A DNA stretch of 64,000 bases, taken from positions 127,401 to 191,400 of the forward strand of contig NJBH01000004.1 in the NCBI GenBank assembly GCA_005223125.1, read 5' to 3'. Of the stretch, positions 47,751 through 62,766 are shown in pieces. The stretch is from Promethearchaeota archaeon Loki_b32. GTDB taxonomy: Archaea > Asgardarchaeota > Lokiarchaeia > Sigyniarchaeales > SOKP01. Position 1 is the stretch's first letter. Every line of letters starts with the position of its first letter. A model generated the notes under the pieces. It was not told the DNA's origin. It saw only the letters and a list, made by a program, of their open reading frames with translations, and made no database searches. Both the position numbers and the translations under genes were made by a program.

Positions 47751-49084
47751 ATGACAAATAATCTCGCTATTATCGGTCTCTCCTGGGGAGGAAATATTGG
47801 GAATACCCCCACAATACCCTAAACGAAGGGAAAGGTAAATTTGTTGATTATTTTGCTCAAAAAGCGGATATTGTCGTAAGATATAATGGTGGAAATAATG
47901 CAGGGCACACAATTGTTGCGAATGGAATTAAGTATAAATTTAAGTTAATGCCTAGTGGAGCCCCTTTAGAAAAGGAATGTGTAATAGCGAATGGTTGTGT
48001 AATCGATCCAAAAGTTTTGCTTGAAGAAATTGAAAACCTAAAGAATTTAAATAAAAAAATAAATTTAAAGTTAAGTTCTACCGCTCATGTAATTTTTCCT
48101 TTTCATCGTATTTTAGATGGATTAGAGGAAAAAACCAAAGGAGATTATGCTGCTGGTACTACTAAAAGAGGAATCGGTCCTACTTATTCTGATAAAGCCG
48201 CCCGCTGGGGTTTAAGAATCTTTGATTTAATAAATCCTGAGATATTAAGACCAAAATTGGAAAGGCTATATAAAATTAAAAAAGATTTAATAGCAGTTTA
48301 TGATCCAAGTGTAGATATCGATTTAGATGCTATTTATGAAGAATACAAATCCTATGGTGAACAATTAAAACCTTACGTTATTGATACAGCTTATTATTTG
48401 AATAAAGCTGTTGATTCTGGCAAAAATATTCTTTTTGAAGCAGCTCAAGGCAGTTTACTCGGTATAGATCATGGATTTTACCCTTTTGGAACATCTTCTA
48501 ATGCAAACGCGTTAGGTATATCTGCTGGCACTGGAATTCCTCCTAAAAAAATAGATAAAATAATAGGAATAGTAAAGGCATATACATCTCGAGTTGGCGA
48601 GGGTAAATTCCCAACAGAATTATATAATGAAATAGCTGAAAAAATTAGAGAGCAGGGTCATGAGTATGGTACAGTAACCGGAAGACCAAGAAGAGTTGGA
48701 TGGTTAGATCTTTTCAATATTAAATATGGAATAATGATTAATGGTGTTGACAAAGTTATAATCACTCTTTTAGATGCGTTAGAAGGAATTAACCCAATTA
48801 AGATGTGTATTGATTATGAATTAGATGGTAAAAAACTTGAGAGTTGGCCAATCCAATCAGAGATAATTAAAAATTGTAAACCAATTTATAAAAGTTTTGA
48901 AGGTTGGGAAGAAAAGACAAGAGAAGAATGGACTAATATTGCTCTAAAAGGTTATGATGCCCTCCCAGAGACAATGAAAATATACATTCAAGCAATTAGA
49001 GAGGAACTTCAGACCGAAATTGCATTAGTTTCAATTGGTCCTGATAGAAGAGAAACTATTGAATTAGTAGAGTGTAATTTTTAA
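47751..49084 (+). CDS. purA: adenylosuccinate synthetase, join(47751..47790,47823..49084), 433 aa after removing a 32-nt insert
   Basis: Spliced N-terminus MTNNLAIIGLSWGDEGKGKFVD...RYNGGNNAGHT; GTTKRGIGP, KAYTSRVG, TVTGRPRRVGW. Confidence 0.93.
47791..47822 (+). other. putative BHB/BHL-type mRNA intron (32 nt)
   Basis: GGGG(47785-88)/CCCT(47817-20) 4-bp helix with cuts 2 nt downstream on each strand; internal TATTG/CAATA stem; removal restores the WGDEGKGK motif. Confidence 0.78.
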
Positions 49085-54738: not shown

Positions 54739-56016
54739 TTATTCAAATTTAGCACCACACGTTGAACAGTTCTCAACTAGAGCTCCACATGTTGCCCCAC
54801 AAATTTGACAGAATCTTATAGTTCCAGTTCTTCTTTTTTTTGGCGGCTTTAAAGTGGTAATCGATACAGATTTTTCTGGTAGTTCATTAACTTCTGGTAT
54901 TTCAGATATTACTTCTCTTTTCGAATTTCCGGTTTGAATTGTAATTTCCTTTCCAAAAAATCCTCCGACCCTTACTTTTTTTGTTTCTACAGCAGGAACT
55001 GGTTCTGATTCTTCTATGACTTCTTCTTGAATTTCAAGCTCTTCTATGATGGGCTCTGAAATAGGCTCACGCAAATCTACTTCAGGTAATTCTTCTTCTA
55101 AATCCTCTTCATAAACCATATTTACAAATTCTTCGTCCAATTTCAAAAGAGTTTGGCAGTTTAAACATCTAAAGATGTGTTTGAAACCAATATTTTTAGC
55201 AAGTGAATATTTTGCAGCACAACAGCTATGAAATTTAGTATTACAATTAAAACATTTATGTATTTCATCCGAATGAGCGTCACAAATAGGGCATAATTCT
55301 TGTTCACATATATTACACACTTCATTATCTTCGGGAGATAAACTGATGAGGTCTACTGCTAAGCATTCATAAAAAATTTGATCTTCTTTTAAAATCTGTT
55401 CAGATTCATCAGTTTTGATAATCTTAAATTCACTTTTGTTCTGAATTAATGAGCCTATAATATTTTGGAGAAGCTTTTCATTTGGACAATAAAATGTACC
55501 ACCATGGGTTTCACTTGAAATAACTTTAAGTTTAACGTCATCCTCATAAAACTTCTCCTCACCAACACGAATAATGTCTATAAATGCTGAAAATTTTTTG
55601 GCTTTAATTAATAGATCATAGAGGGCATTATAATAATCTTCAGATAATTTACTTGGAGTATCTGAAATTATTATTACTCGATAATTTTTTCTTGTTTCAC
55701 GACTTTTTCTAAAAATATATGCTAAAATCTCATATAATCCATTTTCTAAATAACTACGCTCATTTTCTCGTGTTTCCCATGTTTCATCTATTGTTTTCAA
55801 AATGCCTTCGGATTCTTTTAAATCATAAATATTAATGGGATTTTCATCTTTCTGAAATAATACAATTCCATATGAAGTTAAAGGATTAAATTTATCTTTC
55901 TCTTTAATAAAAGCACTTATAGCTTTCATTACAGTTTTTTTCTTAAGAAAATTAGAAACTAAATCTATGTAAAATATAAACTCTTCAGAATTTATTGTAT
56001 TTGATCTTGGTAACAT
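54739..56016 (-). CDS. vWA domain + PHD/RING-like finger + C-terminal zinc ribbon protein (paralog B)
   Basis: RVIIISD, IDIIRVG, SETHGGTFY; CxxC..CxxC..CxxCxxxxHxCC..CxxC; acidic linker; CQICG..CSTCG. Confidence 0.78.
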   Translation of the reverse strand: MLPRSNTINSEEFIFYIDLVSNFLKKKTVMKAISAFIKEKDKFNPLTSYGIVLFQKDENPINIYDLKESEGILKTIDETWETRENERSYLENGLYEILAYIFRKSRETRKNYRVIIISDTPSKLSEDYYNALYDLLIKAKKFSAFIDIIRVGEEKFYEDDVKLKVISSETHGGTFYCPNEKLLQNIIGSLIQNKSEFKIIKTDESEQILKEDQIFYECLAVDLISLSPEDNEVCNICEQELCPICDAHSDEIHKCFNCNTKFHSCCAAKYSLAKNIGFKHIFRCLNCQTLLKLDEEFVNMVYEEDLEEELPEVDLREPISEPIIEELEIQEEVIEESEPVPAVETKKVRVGGFFGKEITIQTGNSKREVISEIPEVNELPEKSVSITTLKPPKKRRTGTIRFCQICGATCGALVENCSTCGAKFE

Positions 56017-56490
56017 TTTAGCACCAATCGTAAAGCTTTAAAAAAATAATAATAGAAGTATTATAAACCAAATTAAATAATATTATTTTATTTCTAATCT
56101 AATTTTATTATAATTTTAATGTATTATGAATTTTTAAATTTTGATAATCACTAAAACATACTTTTTCTTTGAGATAATCAATTTTTTATTGTTAAAAAAT
56201 TATGATTCCTAAATTATTATTTTTTCAAATCCACTAATGCAATAAAAGAGTTTTGAATTTACATATTCAAAATTATTAGATTTAATCTTGGGCTCAAATA
56301 TGGATAAAAATTAGAATTCTATGATTTTATGGTATTTTTGCTTTAGAATATATTTTATAAATTTGGTTTTTATAAATATTATCCAACAATTTCGCCATAA
56401 TCTTAAGGAATTTAATAGATTTCTTTTAATATATTTTTATTAAAAGATTATAATATAAAAGTATTATAAAACTCATTTTATATCTTAATC

Positions 56491-57816
56491 TTATAATCTA
56501 GATCCACAGTTGTTGCATTTGATTTGTTGAGGATCATTTTGCCTCCCACATTGAGGACATATAAGAAAAGTTGGTTTCTTTCTTGTTCCACTATTAGGTA
56601 AAACAGTTCTTTCTTGTTGTATTACTTCTTTTTTTTCAGATTCTGATTTGAAGGTGGTTTCTGTTGTTCTTTCATATACTATCTTATCGCCAATCTTTTT
56701 AACTATATATGCTTTTCCAAAAAATCCACCAATTCTGATAGTTTTAATTGGTTCTCCTTCTGAGATACTTTCTGATTCTTCTGAAAGAGGTTCAACTTTT
56801 TCTTCCATTTCTGTTGAAAAAGCAGGTGGTTCTTTATCAAGGATTAATTCTGGTATATCTTCAAGTACTTCTTTTTCCATATATTCTTTCACTGTACTTA
56901 CTTCCACTTCCCCATATACTTCAATGATCTCATCTTCATCAATTTTTAAAAGCACATCGCAAGATTTATTAGGACACCGAAAGATGTTAGGTATACCAAT
57001 GTTATGGTTTATAACATGATTTGTAATACAACAATTATGAAAGCTTGTATTACAATCTTCACAAATCGAGGGGACATCATGGACACTAGCACAAACAGGA
57101 CAAATTTCTTCATTGCAAAAATGACAAACCAAATTCATTTCATCAGATTTTTTCAAAGATTTAGCTAAATGATTATAAAAGGCATAATCCTCTGTACTAA
57201 TTGTAATGCGTTCCGGGGAATCCACAAAAGTAGTTGCAAATTGTTTAGTTTTAACTAGCTTTTTAATTGTATCGGTGAATTCTTTTTTATCCTTAATATA
57301 AAATATCCCCCCCTTCGTATCCGATGCTAACATATTTAATTTTACATCGTCACTAAAAAAACGCTCGTCTTTTTCCGATACTCTGATAATATCTATAAAA
57401 GTTGGAAAATTTTTAATTACTGAGACCAAGTTGAACAATGCTTCTTGATAATCATCAGATAAATCAGAAGGGGTATCTGTAATAACTATAATTCTATTAA
57501 ATTTGGATTTTTTTCTCACTGTTTCTGCGATATAAGAAAAGATGTAAAATAATCCATTTTCAAAAAAGCTTTGTTCCTTAGGGCGAGTTTTCCAATTTTC
57601 TTCGATTGAGTTTGTGATTATTTTAGAATCCTTTTTATCAGTTATAAAGATTGGATTTCCTTCTTCTTGGAAAATAAGAAGAGAATAACGACCTTTTAAG
57701 TTTGCTTTATTTTTTTCCTCAATATAATATTTAATTACTTTGATAATATCCTTTTTTTTTAATAAATCCTTAGTTAGATCTAAGTAAAAGCATACATCTT
57801 CATTCATTTTTTCCAC
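56491..57816 (-). CDS. vWA domain + PHD/RING-like finger + C-terminal zinc ribbon protein (paralog A)
   Basis: Same architecture; shares ENGL, DTPS.LS.DY, DDVKL, IFRC and GGFFGK with 54739-56016. Confidence 0.78.
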   Translation of the reverse strand: MEKMNEDVCFYLDLTKDLLKKKDIIKVIKYYIEEKNKANLKGRYSLLIFQEEGNPIFITDKKDSKIITNSIEENWKTRPKEQSFFENGLFYIFSYIAETVRKKSKFNRIIVITDTPSDLSDDYQEALFNLVSVIKNFPTFIDIIRVSEKDERFFSDDVKLNMLASDTKGGIFYIKDKKEFTDTIKKLVKTKQFATTFVDSPERITISTEDYAFYNHLAKSLKKSDEMNLVCHFCNEEICPVCASVHDVPSICEDCNTSFHNCCITNHVINHNIGIPNIFRCPNKSCDVLLKIDEDEIIEVYGEVEVSTVKEYMEKEVLEDIPELILDKEPPAFSTEMEEKVEPLSEESESISEGEPIKTIRIGGFFGKAYIVKKIGDKIVYERTTETTFKSESEKKEVIQQERTVLPNSGTRKKPTFLICPQCGRQNDPQQIKCNNCGSRL

Positions 57817-58008: not shown

Positions 58009-60021
58009 ATGGATGACTTTTTAAGAAAGATACAGCTTTCTGAATACGCAATAGAGATTTATCTCAAATCACTTGGTAAATTTCCTCTTACTTATTATGA
58101 ATTATACACATTAGTTCCTAAGGCATCTCCGGAGGAATTCAATGAAGGTTTAGGTGAGTTGTTAGGTGCTGGTTTACTTCTTCAACAAAATTCGAAAAAG
58201 AAAGAAGATATTACTCATTATTTATCTTTACCCCCAATTCTTCCAATTTTAAATTATTATGATAATATTAGTGCAAATTTAGATGATATTAAAAATTCAA
58301 TCCAAGAAATAATGATTAATTCAGTAAACAACGTTTTTCAAGAAAATAATACTATTGAATTGGATTCTATATTACAAAGTTTTCAAGAAATTAGAAAAGA
58401 TATTGAAGAGGATTCTATTATCCAAAAACAGGAAGTAGAAGATATTGTTAAGAGTATGGAAGAATTAAACAATGTTAAGCAAAAATTATCTGTTCTTCAC
58501 CAAAAAATTATAAGTATCACGCAAACTAATTTTGCGGATTTAATTAAAACAATAAATACTCTTAAAACCAATATAGTAGAATCTATAAATTCTTTGGAAT
58601 TCAAAAAACATAAAGAAGAAATTATCTCTCTTATCGAACAGATTTTCAAAGAGAAATTAGATAGTATGGTTGGAGATTTTCTTGATAACTTGCATGAATT
58701 AGTTGAGAAGGAGTTTGAAGAAACAGGAAAACCGGTGGAAAATTCAGCGGATTTAATAATTCAATACCAAAATGACTTTAAAATGCTTTTATTAAACATG
58801 TTGAGTAATTTTGAAACTAAAATGAATAAAATCTATGATTTACTCAAAGAAAATCAAGAAGATCTATTTGCTCGGATGAAAAACTTAGAAATAAAAATCG
58901 CAGAGAATTTAAATAGCATTATCCAGAATTCCATAGATGAAGTTTCAAATTTGAATAATCCCCCTGTAAACTTAATGAAAAAGTACTTTCAAGAGATAAG
59001 AACGATTGATAAACCTTTATTTAATAATATTTGGGTTATAAATAGTGTAACCAAGATTAATGAAATGATTCAACAACTCATTACAAATTCTCAAGAAAGT
59101 GTAACTATTATTATTCCTTTTCTTGAAAACCATTTAGCACTTGAACAATTTGAAGAAATCGCTGCTAATTTAAAGATTAAAATAGCGTCTTCAGAAGCTC
59201 ATACTAATAGTATGGTTAAAAGTTTTAAAGACATTAAGAATATTATATATAGGAATTATCAAAATGAAAATATGGTTGCTTTAAAGGGAGATAATGGTGT
59301 ATTATTTTTTGGAGTAATTCAAGATTCGAAAAATCCTTTAGATGATTTTATTGGAATAGGAACAAGTTATGCACCTTTAATTACTTTATTAAATCCTTTA
59401 ATTCAAAACATATGGGAAAAAGCTTATTCGGATACTTTTCATGGTACACAAAAGGCGCAAACACAACCTAGTAAGACCTCTACAACAACTTCAAAAGTAC
59501 TCACAACTGCTAAACCTATAATATCACCTAAAATTGAATCGAAAAAAGCAGCTAAAAAATCTGTAAAAACAGAAATTAAAGAACCTAAACCAATTATTAC
59601 TATACCAGGTCAAATTCAAGAAATTCCTAAAAACGATATAAGATCTACTAAAAGTCAAACAAAGAAAGCGCCAAGTCCTACTACAGCTAAACCCCAAATT
59701 ACAGATTTAAAGCAAAAATTACAAGAAACAATTGATTTTATATCTGTAGCTCAACCTAAAGCTGGTGATGAAGCAGGTATACAAATAAACACTGCCTTTA
59801 CTAATTTAATTAATAAATTGGATAATATTAAAGGGGATGAATTTGGAAAGATACTACAAGATATTGCTGATTTAATTCTAGAGAAAAAAGGGTTTTCGGT
59901 AACCTTACATAAAGTAAGAAGTACCATAAACAAGTATAAGGAAAAACTTTCTTTATTAGATGAAAGTGATAAAAGAGAAATTTTTGAAAATATTCAAAGT
60001 TGGAAAAAAAAAATATTTTAA
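58009..60021 (+). CDS. TrmB-like wHTH + long coiled coil + PLD-like domain protein
   Basis: LSEYAIEIYL N-terminus, heptad-rich middle, IWVINS..INEMIQQLI...QESVTIIIP, S/T/K/P linker. Confidence 0.6.
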   Translation: MDDFLRKIQLSEYAIEIYLKSLGKFPLTYYELYTLVPKASPEEFNEGLGELLGAGLLLQQNSKKKEDITHYLSLPPILPILNYYDNISANLDDIKNSIQEIMINSVNNVFQENNTIELDSILQSFQEIRKDIEEDSIIQKQEVEDIVKSMEELNNVKQKLSVLHQKIISITQTNFADLIKTINTLKTNIVESINSLEFKKHKEEIISLIEQIFKEKLDSMVGDFLDNLHELVEKEFEETGKPVENSADLIIQYQNDFKMLLLNMLSNFETKMNKIYDLLKENQEDLFARMKNLEIKIAENLNSIIQNSIDEVSNLNNPPVNLMKKYFQEIRTIDKPLFNNIWVINSVTKINEMIQQLITNSQESVTIIIPFLENHLALEQFEEIAANLKIKIASSEAHTNSMVKSFKDIKNIIYRNYQNENMVALKGDNGVLFFGVIQDSKNPLDDFIGIGTSYAPLITLLNPLIQNIWEKAYSDTFHGTQKAQTQPSKTSTTTSKVLTTAKPIISPKIESKKAAKKSVKTEIKEPKPIITIPGQIQEIPKNDIRSTKSQTKKAPSPTTAKPQITDLKQKLQETIDFISVAQPKAGDEAGIQINTAFTNLINKLDNIKGDEFGKILQDIADLILEKKGFSVTLHKVRSTINKYKEKLSLLDESDKREIFENIQSWKKKIF

Positions 60022-60043: not shown

Positions 60044-60826
60044 TTATTGAGAAGGATTTGTTGTCTTTCTTCTCTTAATAAAAAATAGAATAAATCCCCG
60101 GGTGATCCATGTTAATCCAAATACAAAAAATCCTAAAAAGAATATAGATATTGTAACTGATATTATAAAATTGGGTGAGGTTAAACCAATAATTCCGAAA
60201 ATAGGACAAAGTGGACCAAGAACAACAACAAGTAAATAAGTACTTTTATCTTTTTCATCAACTTGAATATAAGCGGTGATATTAAACCAACCGATAAGGA
60301 TCAAAAATATCGGTAGTAGATAAGATGAAATCTCAAGGAAGGGGTATGTATTGCCTCCTAACGCGAATGCATAGAAATAATTTATATAGAAATAGAAAAT
60401 GAGTAATAAAGCGCTTATTGGAGTTGGTACTCCAGTATATCCTGAACCTTTTAAGATATTAAAACGTGCTAACCTGAGCATTGCTCCAATAACAAAACTA
60501 ATTGCTCCTATTATAATAAAAAGGTCAAATAGAGTCCCTGTTTTAAAAGATTGGTATGTTAAAATCGCTGGTACTATTCCAAAAGTTAATGAATCGCTTA
60601 AAGAATCTAATTCTCTACCCATATCATTCACAGTTTTAGTCTTTCGTGCAATATATCCGTCTATCAAGTCAGTACCAAGGCTGATTGTTATTAAAAAAAA
60701 TCCTAAAGAAAGAAATTCACGACTTCCAATACACGCACATATTAAAGCAACTAAGCCCAAACTCGTTCCTAGGAGAGTTATATAATCTTTGTGTTTCAAT
60801 AATTTTGGAATACTGATGTCTGACAT
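60044..60826 (-). CDS. pssA: CDP-alcohol phosphatidyltransferase (archaetidylserine synthase-like)
   Basis: DLIDGYIAR...GRELDSLSD, RLARFN, GVPTP. Confidence 0.85.
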   Translation of the reverse strand: MSDISIPKLLKHKDYITLLGTSLGLVALICACIGSREFLSLGFFLITISLGTDLIDGYIARKTKTVNDMGRELDSLSDSLTFGIVPAILTYQSFKTGTLFDLFIIIGAISFVIGAMLRLARFNILKGSGYTGVPTPISALLLIFYFYINYFYAFALGGNTYPFLEISSYLLPIFLILIGWFNITAYIQVDEKDKSTYLLVVVLGPLCPIFGIIGLTSPNFIISVTISIFFLGFFVFGLTWITRGFILFFIKRRKTTNPSQ

Positions 60827-60984: not shown

Positions 60985-61725
60985 ATGACGTTTTGCAAAG
61001 AATGTGGAGAAGAGATAAAAGATCTCACCCAAAATTTCTGTGAAAAGTGTGGTTCATCAATACCTGATAGTGTAAAACAGAGTGAAACCGTTTCTAAGAC
61101 AATAACAGCACCAGCAAGACCATCAGGTCAACAATCCTATTATCAACCTGGGAGTTTGTTTGATATTAACCGCAACTACTACATCCTTAAAGAGAAATAC
61201 TGGGATATTTAGAAGGTCCTCCCTTTTAAACTCAAATGGGGTAGTGGGGATATATTGGACGAGAAAAACCAAATTATTGGAAGAATGAAAAGGGTGATCT
61301 TGAGCATTAGACGAAGAGTTGAGTTGCAAGAAGTTGATGGTACTATTGCGGCTACAATCCACGCTAAAATTGTGTCTGCACGTGGAGCGCAAGATTTAAA
61401 AGATCCTCAGGGAAATTTAATTGCTCGAATTAAGAAGAAAATTCTGTCATTTTTCAGACCTGTATTTTACCTTGAAGATCCTGAAGGAAATCAATGGTTC
61501 CGTGCCCAAGGTAAGTTTATGGGGTTTCAATTTAAGGTCTATGACGTTACAACAGGCAATGTCATCGCAGAAATTGAAAAAGCTGATAGATGGAGAGATT
61601 TATTCTTAGGTGGATTGCTTGACTTTAAGGACACTTATGCTTTAAGAATACTTGATAATGAAACCGACAGGAGAATCCTTCTAGGTTTTGTCTTGTCAAT
61701 AGACAATGTCCTTCACGACTACTAA
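60985..61725 (+). CDS. zinc-ribbon + LURP-one/scramblase (Tubby C-like) protein, join(60985..61206,61237..61725), 236 aa
   Basis: ORFs 60985-61212 and 61255-61725 share a frame; splicing gives YILKEKYWDWGSGDILDEKNQIIG; repeats such as ARIKKKILSF and DTYALRI are typical of the family. Confidence 0.85.
61207..61236 (+). other. putative BHB mRNA intron (30 nt)
   Basis: TGGG AT^A TTTAGAAGG tcctc CCTTTTAAA CTCA AA^T: 4-bp helix, two 3-nt bulges, 9-bp intron stem; contains the in-frame TAG. Confidence 0.85.
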
Positions 61726-62034: not shown

Positions 62035-62766
62035 ATGGTTAAAAATATAATAAAGTTAGTAATTGATGGAGAAGAACATTCTTTTTCAGAAGATCATAAG
62101 AATTTTATAGGACCAAAGAAGAAATATACAATTAAAGAATTTCAAGAAGAAAAGTTAAAAAGTATAAAAAATTTTGTAGCACTTAGGGAAGGAACTGTTT
62201 TTGGTTTTTCTGATGAGGAAGAATTTGATAAATGGTTAGTCAAAAAAAATTTATATGAAGAGCATAATAAACATAAAAAACGTCTGAAGAAAGTTCTTGA
62301 GACTAAAAGACCTTCTGAAGAATGGGAGAAAATTAACCAGAACCTAATAAAAGAAGAAAAAAAAGCCACTACTAGATTCAAAAATTTCTTAAAGAAACAT
62401 AATCTTGAGCCAGGTCAACATGAATTAATAAGAGAGAAGATAAAAGAAGATTTTGATCCATATTTACCACCAAAACTAAATACCATGTATCTCTATGAAC
62501 ATATATTTTACGGTGGTAGTTTTATATCCCTAAAAGGGGGCTACATTTATTGTGGTAAGAATTATCCAAAATATTATCCAGATCTTCGTAATTTCAATTT
62601 TAATGACAAGACATCTTCAGTAGATTTTAATTGCGGAAGCCGGGCTTATGTTTATGAGCATATAAACTTTGGAGGAAACTCAGTGTGGCTTTGGGGTCCC
62701 TATTATCCCTTTTTATTATTCGTTGGCCTTGATAATAAAATATCTTCAGCAGTAGTTTACGGTTAA
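62035..62766 (+). CDS. protein with C-terminal beta/gamma-crystallin domain
   Basis: LYEHIFYGG...FNDKTSS and VYEHINFGG...DNKISS Greek-key motifs. Confidence 0.8.
   Translation: MVKNIIKLVIDGEEHSFSEDHKNFIGPKKKYTIKEFQEEKLKSIKNFVALREGTVFGFSDEEEFDKWLVKKNLYEEHNKHKKRLKKVLETKRPSEEWEKINQNLIKEEKKATTRFKNFLKKHNLEPGQHELIREKIKEDFDPYLPPKLNTMYLYEHIFYGGSFISLKGGYIYCGKNYPKYYPDLRNFNFNDKTSSVDFNCGSRAYVYEHINFGGNSVWLWGPYYPFLLFVGLDNKISSAVVYG

Follow-up and report, generated by a model that had tools for sequence, protein, structure and literature searches.

A 75-codon open reading frame starts at position 60985 of the window analyzed here (a 64,000-nucleotide stretch of the Loki_b32 genome) and is closed by a TAG at 61210-61212, after which the same frame opens again and runs to 61725. 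The locus thus raises the question of whether two short proteins, a decayed gene or a single interrupted gene is encoded, and, in the last case, how the interruption is overcome. The names of homologs place the host in the Promethearchaeota/Lokiarchaeia. The original prediction proposed that the two same-frame ORFs are separated by a bulge-helix-bulge (BHB) intron of 30 nt, and its coordinates all check. The claimed TGGG/CTCA central helix (four of four pairs, one of them G-U), the 3-nt bulges AT^A and AA^T, and the 9-bp intron stem (61208-61216 with 61222-61230, including one G-U pair) with its 5-nt loop are all present, and excision of the insert joins YWD to WGSG in an open frame of 236 aa. 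The features of the locus are collected in Table 1.

Table 1. Positions of the insert, its host gene and associated features in the window
Feature	Position	Strand	Description
BHB intron, site A (candidate)	61207..61236	+	30 nt, phase 0, Asp74/Trp75 boundary, in-frame TAG 61210-12
Exon 1	60985..61206	+	Zinc ribbon (PF13240), linker, first beta-strand of LURP-one/tubby-C barrel
Exon 2	61237..61725	+	Remainder of LURP-one-related (PF04525) barrel; predicted spliced product 236 aa
Central helix, 5' (exon) strand	61201..61204	+	TGGG
Central helix, 3' (intron) strand	61231..61234	+	CTCA; CCCA, CTCG or CCTG in orthologs, 4/4 paired throughout
Intron hairpin	61208..61230	+	9-bp stem, 5-nt loop; both-side changes in 5/9 pairs, 10 species
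Distal exon-exon helix, predicted with BHB constraint	61176..61247	+	61176-82 plus 61184-86 with 61238-47
Divergent exon patch linked to intron	61149..61260	+	15 synonymous differences vs intronless close strains, flanks nearly identical
Site B position, empty in Loki_b32	61194..61195	+	Glu70/Lys71; filled in 8 congeneric genomes and some close strains
purA insert, BHB-like	47791..47822	+	32 nt, frameshifting, SWG-D-EGKG motif, central helix GGGG/CCCT
Divergent neighbor, CDP-alcohol phosphatidyltransferase (PF01066)	60044..60826	-	Conserved synteny, basis for ortholog calls

When each bulge is cut after its second base, the host gene is restored exactly, and this is the single best-scoring excision. 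The resulting 236-aa product is identical to the proteins of intronless strains at 231-232 of 236 residues (98%). A 4/4 helix combined with a stem of at least 9 bp at the fixed junction occurs at a frequency of 2e-5 among random genomic 30-mers and of 5e-6 in shuffled versions of the insert. Assembly error is excluded because seven further contigs, drawn from JGI, ENA, NCBI and Logan assemblies, contain the site-A insert with a single nucleotide changed in the loop. At 30 nt the insert is too short for a group I or group II intron, and the insert region has no Rfam match at E values up to 1. In line with the claimed zinc-ribbon/LURP-one identity of the host protein, its PF13240 and PF04525 domains are both matched, the latter with 37.7 bits against a cut-off of 24.5, and its predicted fold is that of tubby-C (best structure match 1zxu, E 4e-6, followed by TULP1). 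This model is alignment-based, single-sequence structure prediction having reached a pLDDT of only 39; it places the intron junction within the hairpin joining beta-strands 1 and 2, with the result that neither fragment would be a whole barrel domain. Upstream in the window, positions 54739-57816 of the minus strand carry two tandem paralogous vWA-like/Cys-rich/zinc-ribbon genes of 425 and 441 aa, and next after them, at 58009-60021, lies a gene of 670 aa without a Pfam match.

The short, interrupted frame is found in 18 of the 50 genomes of the genus that have a clear ortholog, approximately a third, and all 18 were examined. Ten of them carry a 30-nt insert at the same position (site A), and eight carry an insert of 27-30 nt at a second position, site B, located 12 nt upstream between LKE and KYWD. 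A stop codon or frameshift is present in every one of the 18 inserts, as is a 4/4 central helix at EndA cut spacing; in one strain-level site-B allele only three of the four pairs form. The intron-side helix measures 6-10 bp across the site-A alleles. When the site-A structure was compared across 10 species, 98% of positions were paired and six pairs (19 cells) were changed on both sides, against only one or two pairs when the partners were slid by one column as a control, although these covariation counts overstate the signal because related sequences are not independent. The orthologs examined from other genera are all intronless, and the expectation that orthologs would read straight through YWDWGSG was borne out, 122 of 125 full-length proteins matching the junction motif. 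No ortholog was found to carry a 10-aa sense insert in place of the intron. Two 246-aa database proteins (P0127 and P0128; L054 and L065) were considered as such inserts and rejected, as they translate only with TGA read as Trp across a site-B intron; they are gene-caller artefacts, the public gene calls having switched to this code over the intron and produced false proteins. At their 3' end, four site-B introns (L009, L012, L014 and L037) repeat in inverted orientation 8-10 nt of the exon directly upstream, and because of this copy their bulges can also pair. An origin of these four by inverted duplication is compatible with this arrangement, if speculative.

Selection on the downstream exon was assessed over codons W75-R90, the 16 codons from the insert to the first downstream Met. 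The ratio of synonymous to non-synonymous changes is 290:79, and 3618:1254 in intronless alleles. Exon 2 of the interrupted alleles is under purifying selection, at a ratio like that of intronless alleles, and from sequence and the structural model the interrupted gene appears to function as one protein.

The insert had been described as a near-canonical BHB with an outer exon-exon helix of about 1 bp. The geometry is present, but in a relaxed rather than a canonical form, because the 10-bp exon-exon helix that is predicted when the BHB is forced (Table 1) forms only beyond a 14-nt loop. The exon-exon helix directly adjacent to the BHB is indeed at most 1 bp, but pairing between the exons is predicted not to be limited to it, given the distal helix. 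Such an arrangement would fit the relaxed BHB form reported for cbf5. The 81-nt region folds no better than its shuffles (z 0.66). The BHB is 1.2 kcal/mol less stable than the minimum-energy fold, and its central helix has a probability of 0.16 in a 110-nt fragment. In most site-A alleles, too, the BHB differs from the minimum-energy fold (central-helix probability 0.00-0.55). The codons for Arg64 and Ser77, which are able to pair across the intron, are complementary in 10 of 10 site-A alleles versus 17 of 33 intronless alleles, a difference that is suggestive only with respect to distal pairing.

The host genome encodes two EndA paralogs and an intact RtcB. EndA copy C18 carries the catalytic residues Tyr/His/Lys, its closest match being the crenarchaeal-type alpha subunit (3ajv/3p1z, E 2e-35), and copy C2 is without the catalytic His. 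By their sequences, the two fit the alpha and beta subunits of an (alpha-beta)2 enzyme, the EndA type for which cleavage of relaxed motifs in cbf5 has been reported (PMC2738675). We propose that the transcript would fold into the relaxed BHB, that EndA, as an (alpha-beta)2 enzyme of two subunits, would cut each 3-nt bulge after its second base, that RtcB would ligate the exons, and that the 236-aa zinc-ribbon/tubby-C protein would then be translated. Among JGI metagenome contigs, the exact spliced-junction pattern with the flanks of this allele gave 0 matches and a variable-gap junction pattern retrieved only an unspliced copy; no database protein identical to the spliced window product was found. 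Of the claim of an EndA-spliced mRNA intron, the comparative part and the presence of the enzymes stand, whereas splicing itself is still what we infer, RNA support not having been found.

Inserts of the same kind interrupt other genes of this genome. The sole pyrG gene, which encodes CTP synthase and was found in one copy in a genome that is 95.5% complete, contains a TAG-bearing BHB insert of 30 nt at C66:7883-7912 (G000, L111). This insert lies in the P-loop, between GGVMSGI and GKG, with a 4/4 helix and a 10-bp stem, and the same site is also occupied in six congeners. Within the window, purA (47751-49084, plus strand) is interrupted after codon 13 by a BHB-like insert (Table 1) with a 4/4 central helix. 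Its removal restores the conserved motif, the inner stem departs by about 3 nt from its place in strict BHB geometry, and 8 of 29 congeners carry an insert there. When about 370 kb were scanned by homology, only the site-A insert and that in pyrG were recovered, a lower bound, since purA was missed because of its short first exon. In a reference-free genome-wide scan, BHBs were no more frequent than control geometries and the known site was overlooked, so that the scan gives no count. The best explanation of these observations includes several such introns in this genome, one of them in the essential pyrG. Over the whole genome, ARAGORN called only 23 tRNA genes, 12 of them with an intron, which suggests that further intron-hidden tRNAs are present.

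Several other readings of the interrupted frame were weighed. The insert is absent from about two thirds of congeners and from many close strains, and the gene has no known essentiality, as might be expected of a pseudogene in which a chance insertion had inactivated a dispensable gene. However, all 18 interrupted copies are intact apart from the insert, every insert is BHB-shaped with compensatory changes, exon 2 is under purifying selection, and the sole pyrG carries an insert of the same kind, so that we regard inactivation as highly improbable. Only slightly less improbable, in our judgment, is the arrangement given in database annotation, a 75-aa zinc-ribbon peptide followed by a separately initiated protein of 146-156 aa. 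Gene callers do output these two ORFs, and Met91, at which the second would start, is conserved; against such a split, residues 75-90 upstream of Met91 are conserved as protein, and the barrel would, in the model, lose beta-strands 1-3. A split would also fail to account for the conserved RNA structure or for pyrG and purA being built in the same way.

Translational recoding, by stop readthrough or by ribosomal bypassing over the hairpin, likewise seems very unlikely, even with a hairpin following the stop codon and a site-A length divisible by 3. Readthrough is disfavored because the stop codon varies between alleles (TAG, TGA or TAA) and the site-B and purA inserts of 28, 29, 31 and 32 nt shift the frame. 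Bypassing is disfavored because nine of the ten site-A alleles lack matched take-off and landing codons, the codon before the insert being the same as the last codon of the insert in only one. Least probable of all, to the point of being negligible, is excision at the DNA level, by which the insert would be cut from the chromosome in some cells and the intronless contigs would be the products. Alleles with and without the insert do co-occur in the same metagenomes (ERZ27251131; JGI 3300024432), but the intronless contigs carry another flanking haplotype (about 15 differences) and never that of the insert allele. Near-identical intronless contigs were also considered as spliced cDNA, and this was rejected, since they are genomic with another haplotype; as none of the intronless contigs bears the flanks of the site-A allele, they represent neither cDNA of a spliced message nor products of excision. 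We therefore return to splicing of the message. We consider it highly likely, on comparative sequence evidence that is strong for a BHB mRNA intron candidate, that these 30 nt constitute an mRNA intron of the tRNA type. Very probably the tRNA-splicing enzymes must cut the message and rejoin it, events that we infer to take place in the cell.

Close strains differ very little along most of the locus and show three alleles, with no intron, with the intron at site A or with the intron at site B. Compared with an intronless strain, the window has 15 differences in 90 positions around the junction and 3 in 660 in the flanks (Fisher p 3e-12), and the site-B allele has a patch of its own with nine differences. 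The junction region is not generally more variable (0.19 versus 0.25 between species). On a gene tree of exon 2 from which the patch was left out, nine changes are required to account for the 10 site-A carriers, and intron state shows no clustering beyond that of shuffled labels. The patch signal is weak or absent in several between-species pairs. We think it reasonably probable, from these sequence comparisons, that the intron moves between lineages on a short homologous-recombination patch of about 80-110 nt; a long-standing allele that the indel protects from local recombination would produce an identical peak of differences. A search of the genome for a source copy of the intron found none, the best match being 15 nt. 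The 3' end of the gene has divergent patches as well, so that what is seen is ordinary mosaicism that includes the intron, with no dedicated homing mechanism shown. The intron is an optional allele and probably a near-neutral one.

A second stretch that diverges from close strains covers about 61475-61725 of the window and continues downstream, at the 3' end of the gene. The gene that follows is a 243-aa ORF here (62035-62766, plus strand; repeated motifs in its C-terminal part and a weak Pfam match to Inhibitor_I36, E 0.04), in place of a gene of 338-355 aa in other strains. The divergent 3' stretch and the differing downstream gene likely mark a recombination or replacement boundary.

Taking these results together, we lean, if only slightly, toward a broader view in which mRNA splicing by EndA and RtcB is routine in the genus, affecting tens of genes per genome, some of them essential, and mini-introns segregate and move between strains and species on short patches that include the motif-forming exon bases. 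If one Asgard genome has several such introns, among them one in its only CTP synthase gene, splicing of mRNAs with the tRNA machinery would be routine in these relatives of eukaryotes, and the broader view, if true, would make population-level intron gain and loss observable in the closest archaeal relatives of eukaryotes. The presence of three alleles among close strains and in the same samples makes the arrival and spread of archaeal introns testable by population metagenomics. The databases misannotate such genes as split, truncated or code-4 proteins.

An intron in a coding sequence has been published in archaea only for cbf5, whose pre-mRNA is interrupted in Desulfurococcales and Sulfolobales (Watanabe 2002; Yokobori 2009, PMC2738675), and cbf5 is named as the only BHB intron in archaeal mRNA besides the 5' UTR case of Haloferax (PMC7714728). 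For Asgard archaea, we found no report of an mRNA intron in the searchable literature, which leaves most subscription journals outside. The Haloferax volcanii HVO_1309 intron (Schwarz 2020, PMC7714728) is likewise an EndA-processed BHB intron in an mRNA, but it lies in the untranslated region and, unlike the insert described here, leaves the reading frame uninterrupted. The tRNA introns of Asgard archaea (PMC11291895; bioRxiv 10.64898/2026.10.13.758758) share with the present inserts the BHB motif, a similar size, repeated gains and a host with two EndA paralogs, and their route of arrival is stated to be open. Both of these studies concern tRNA genes only, whereas the present case concerns mRNA, and the terms "mRNA" and "cbf5" are absent from the bioRxiv paper (10.64898/2026.10.13.758758). 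In a Caldiarchaeum population, intron presence in a tRNA-Thr gene likewise varies within one archaeal population (Sugahara 2012, PMC3293823), linked there to a 1.8-kb recombinase element; here an mRNA is concerned, only a short divergent exon patch accompanies the intron, and a recombinase element was not seen in the aligned flanks.

The closest parallel is cbf5 itself (PMC2738675). In both systems a short intron (16-44 nt in cbf5, 27-32 nt here) lies in coding sequence at a conserved motif, the BHB is often relaxed, the cut falls after the second bulge base, and the host has a hetero-oligomeric EndA. The cbf5 intron, however, occupies one site in one gene, is inherited from an ancestor with a few losses and has been confirmed by cDNA (PMC2738675), whereas the introns proposed here, predicted from genomic sequence, are found in an Asgard host, in several unrelated genes (LURP-one-like, pyrG and purA). 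In one of these genes they occupy two sites 12 nt apart and are present or absent among close strains. The proposed mechanism is that of the crenarchaeal cbf5 intron, and what is new here is the segregation of three alleles among close strains.
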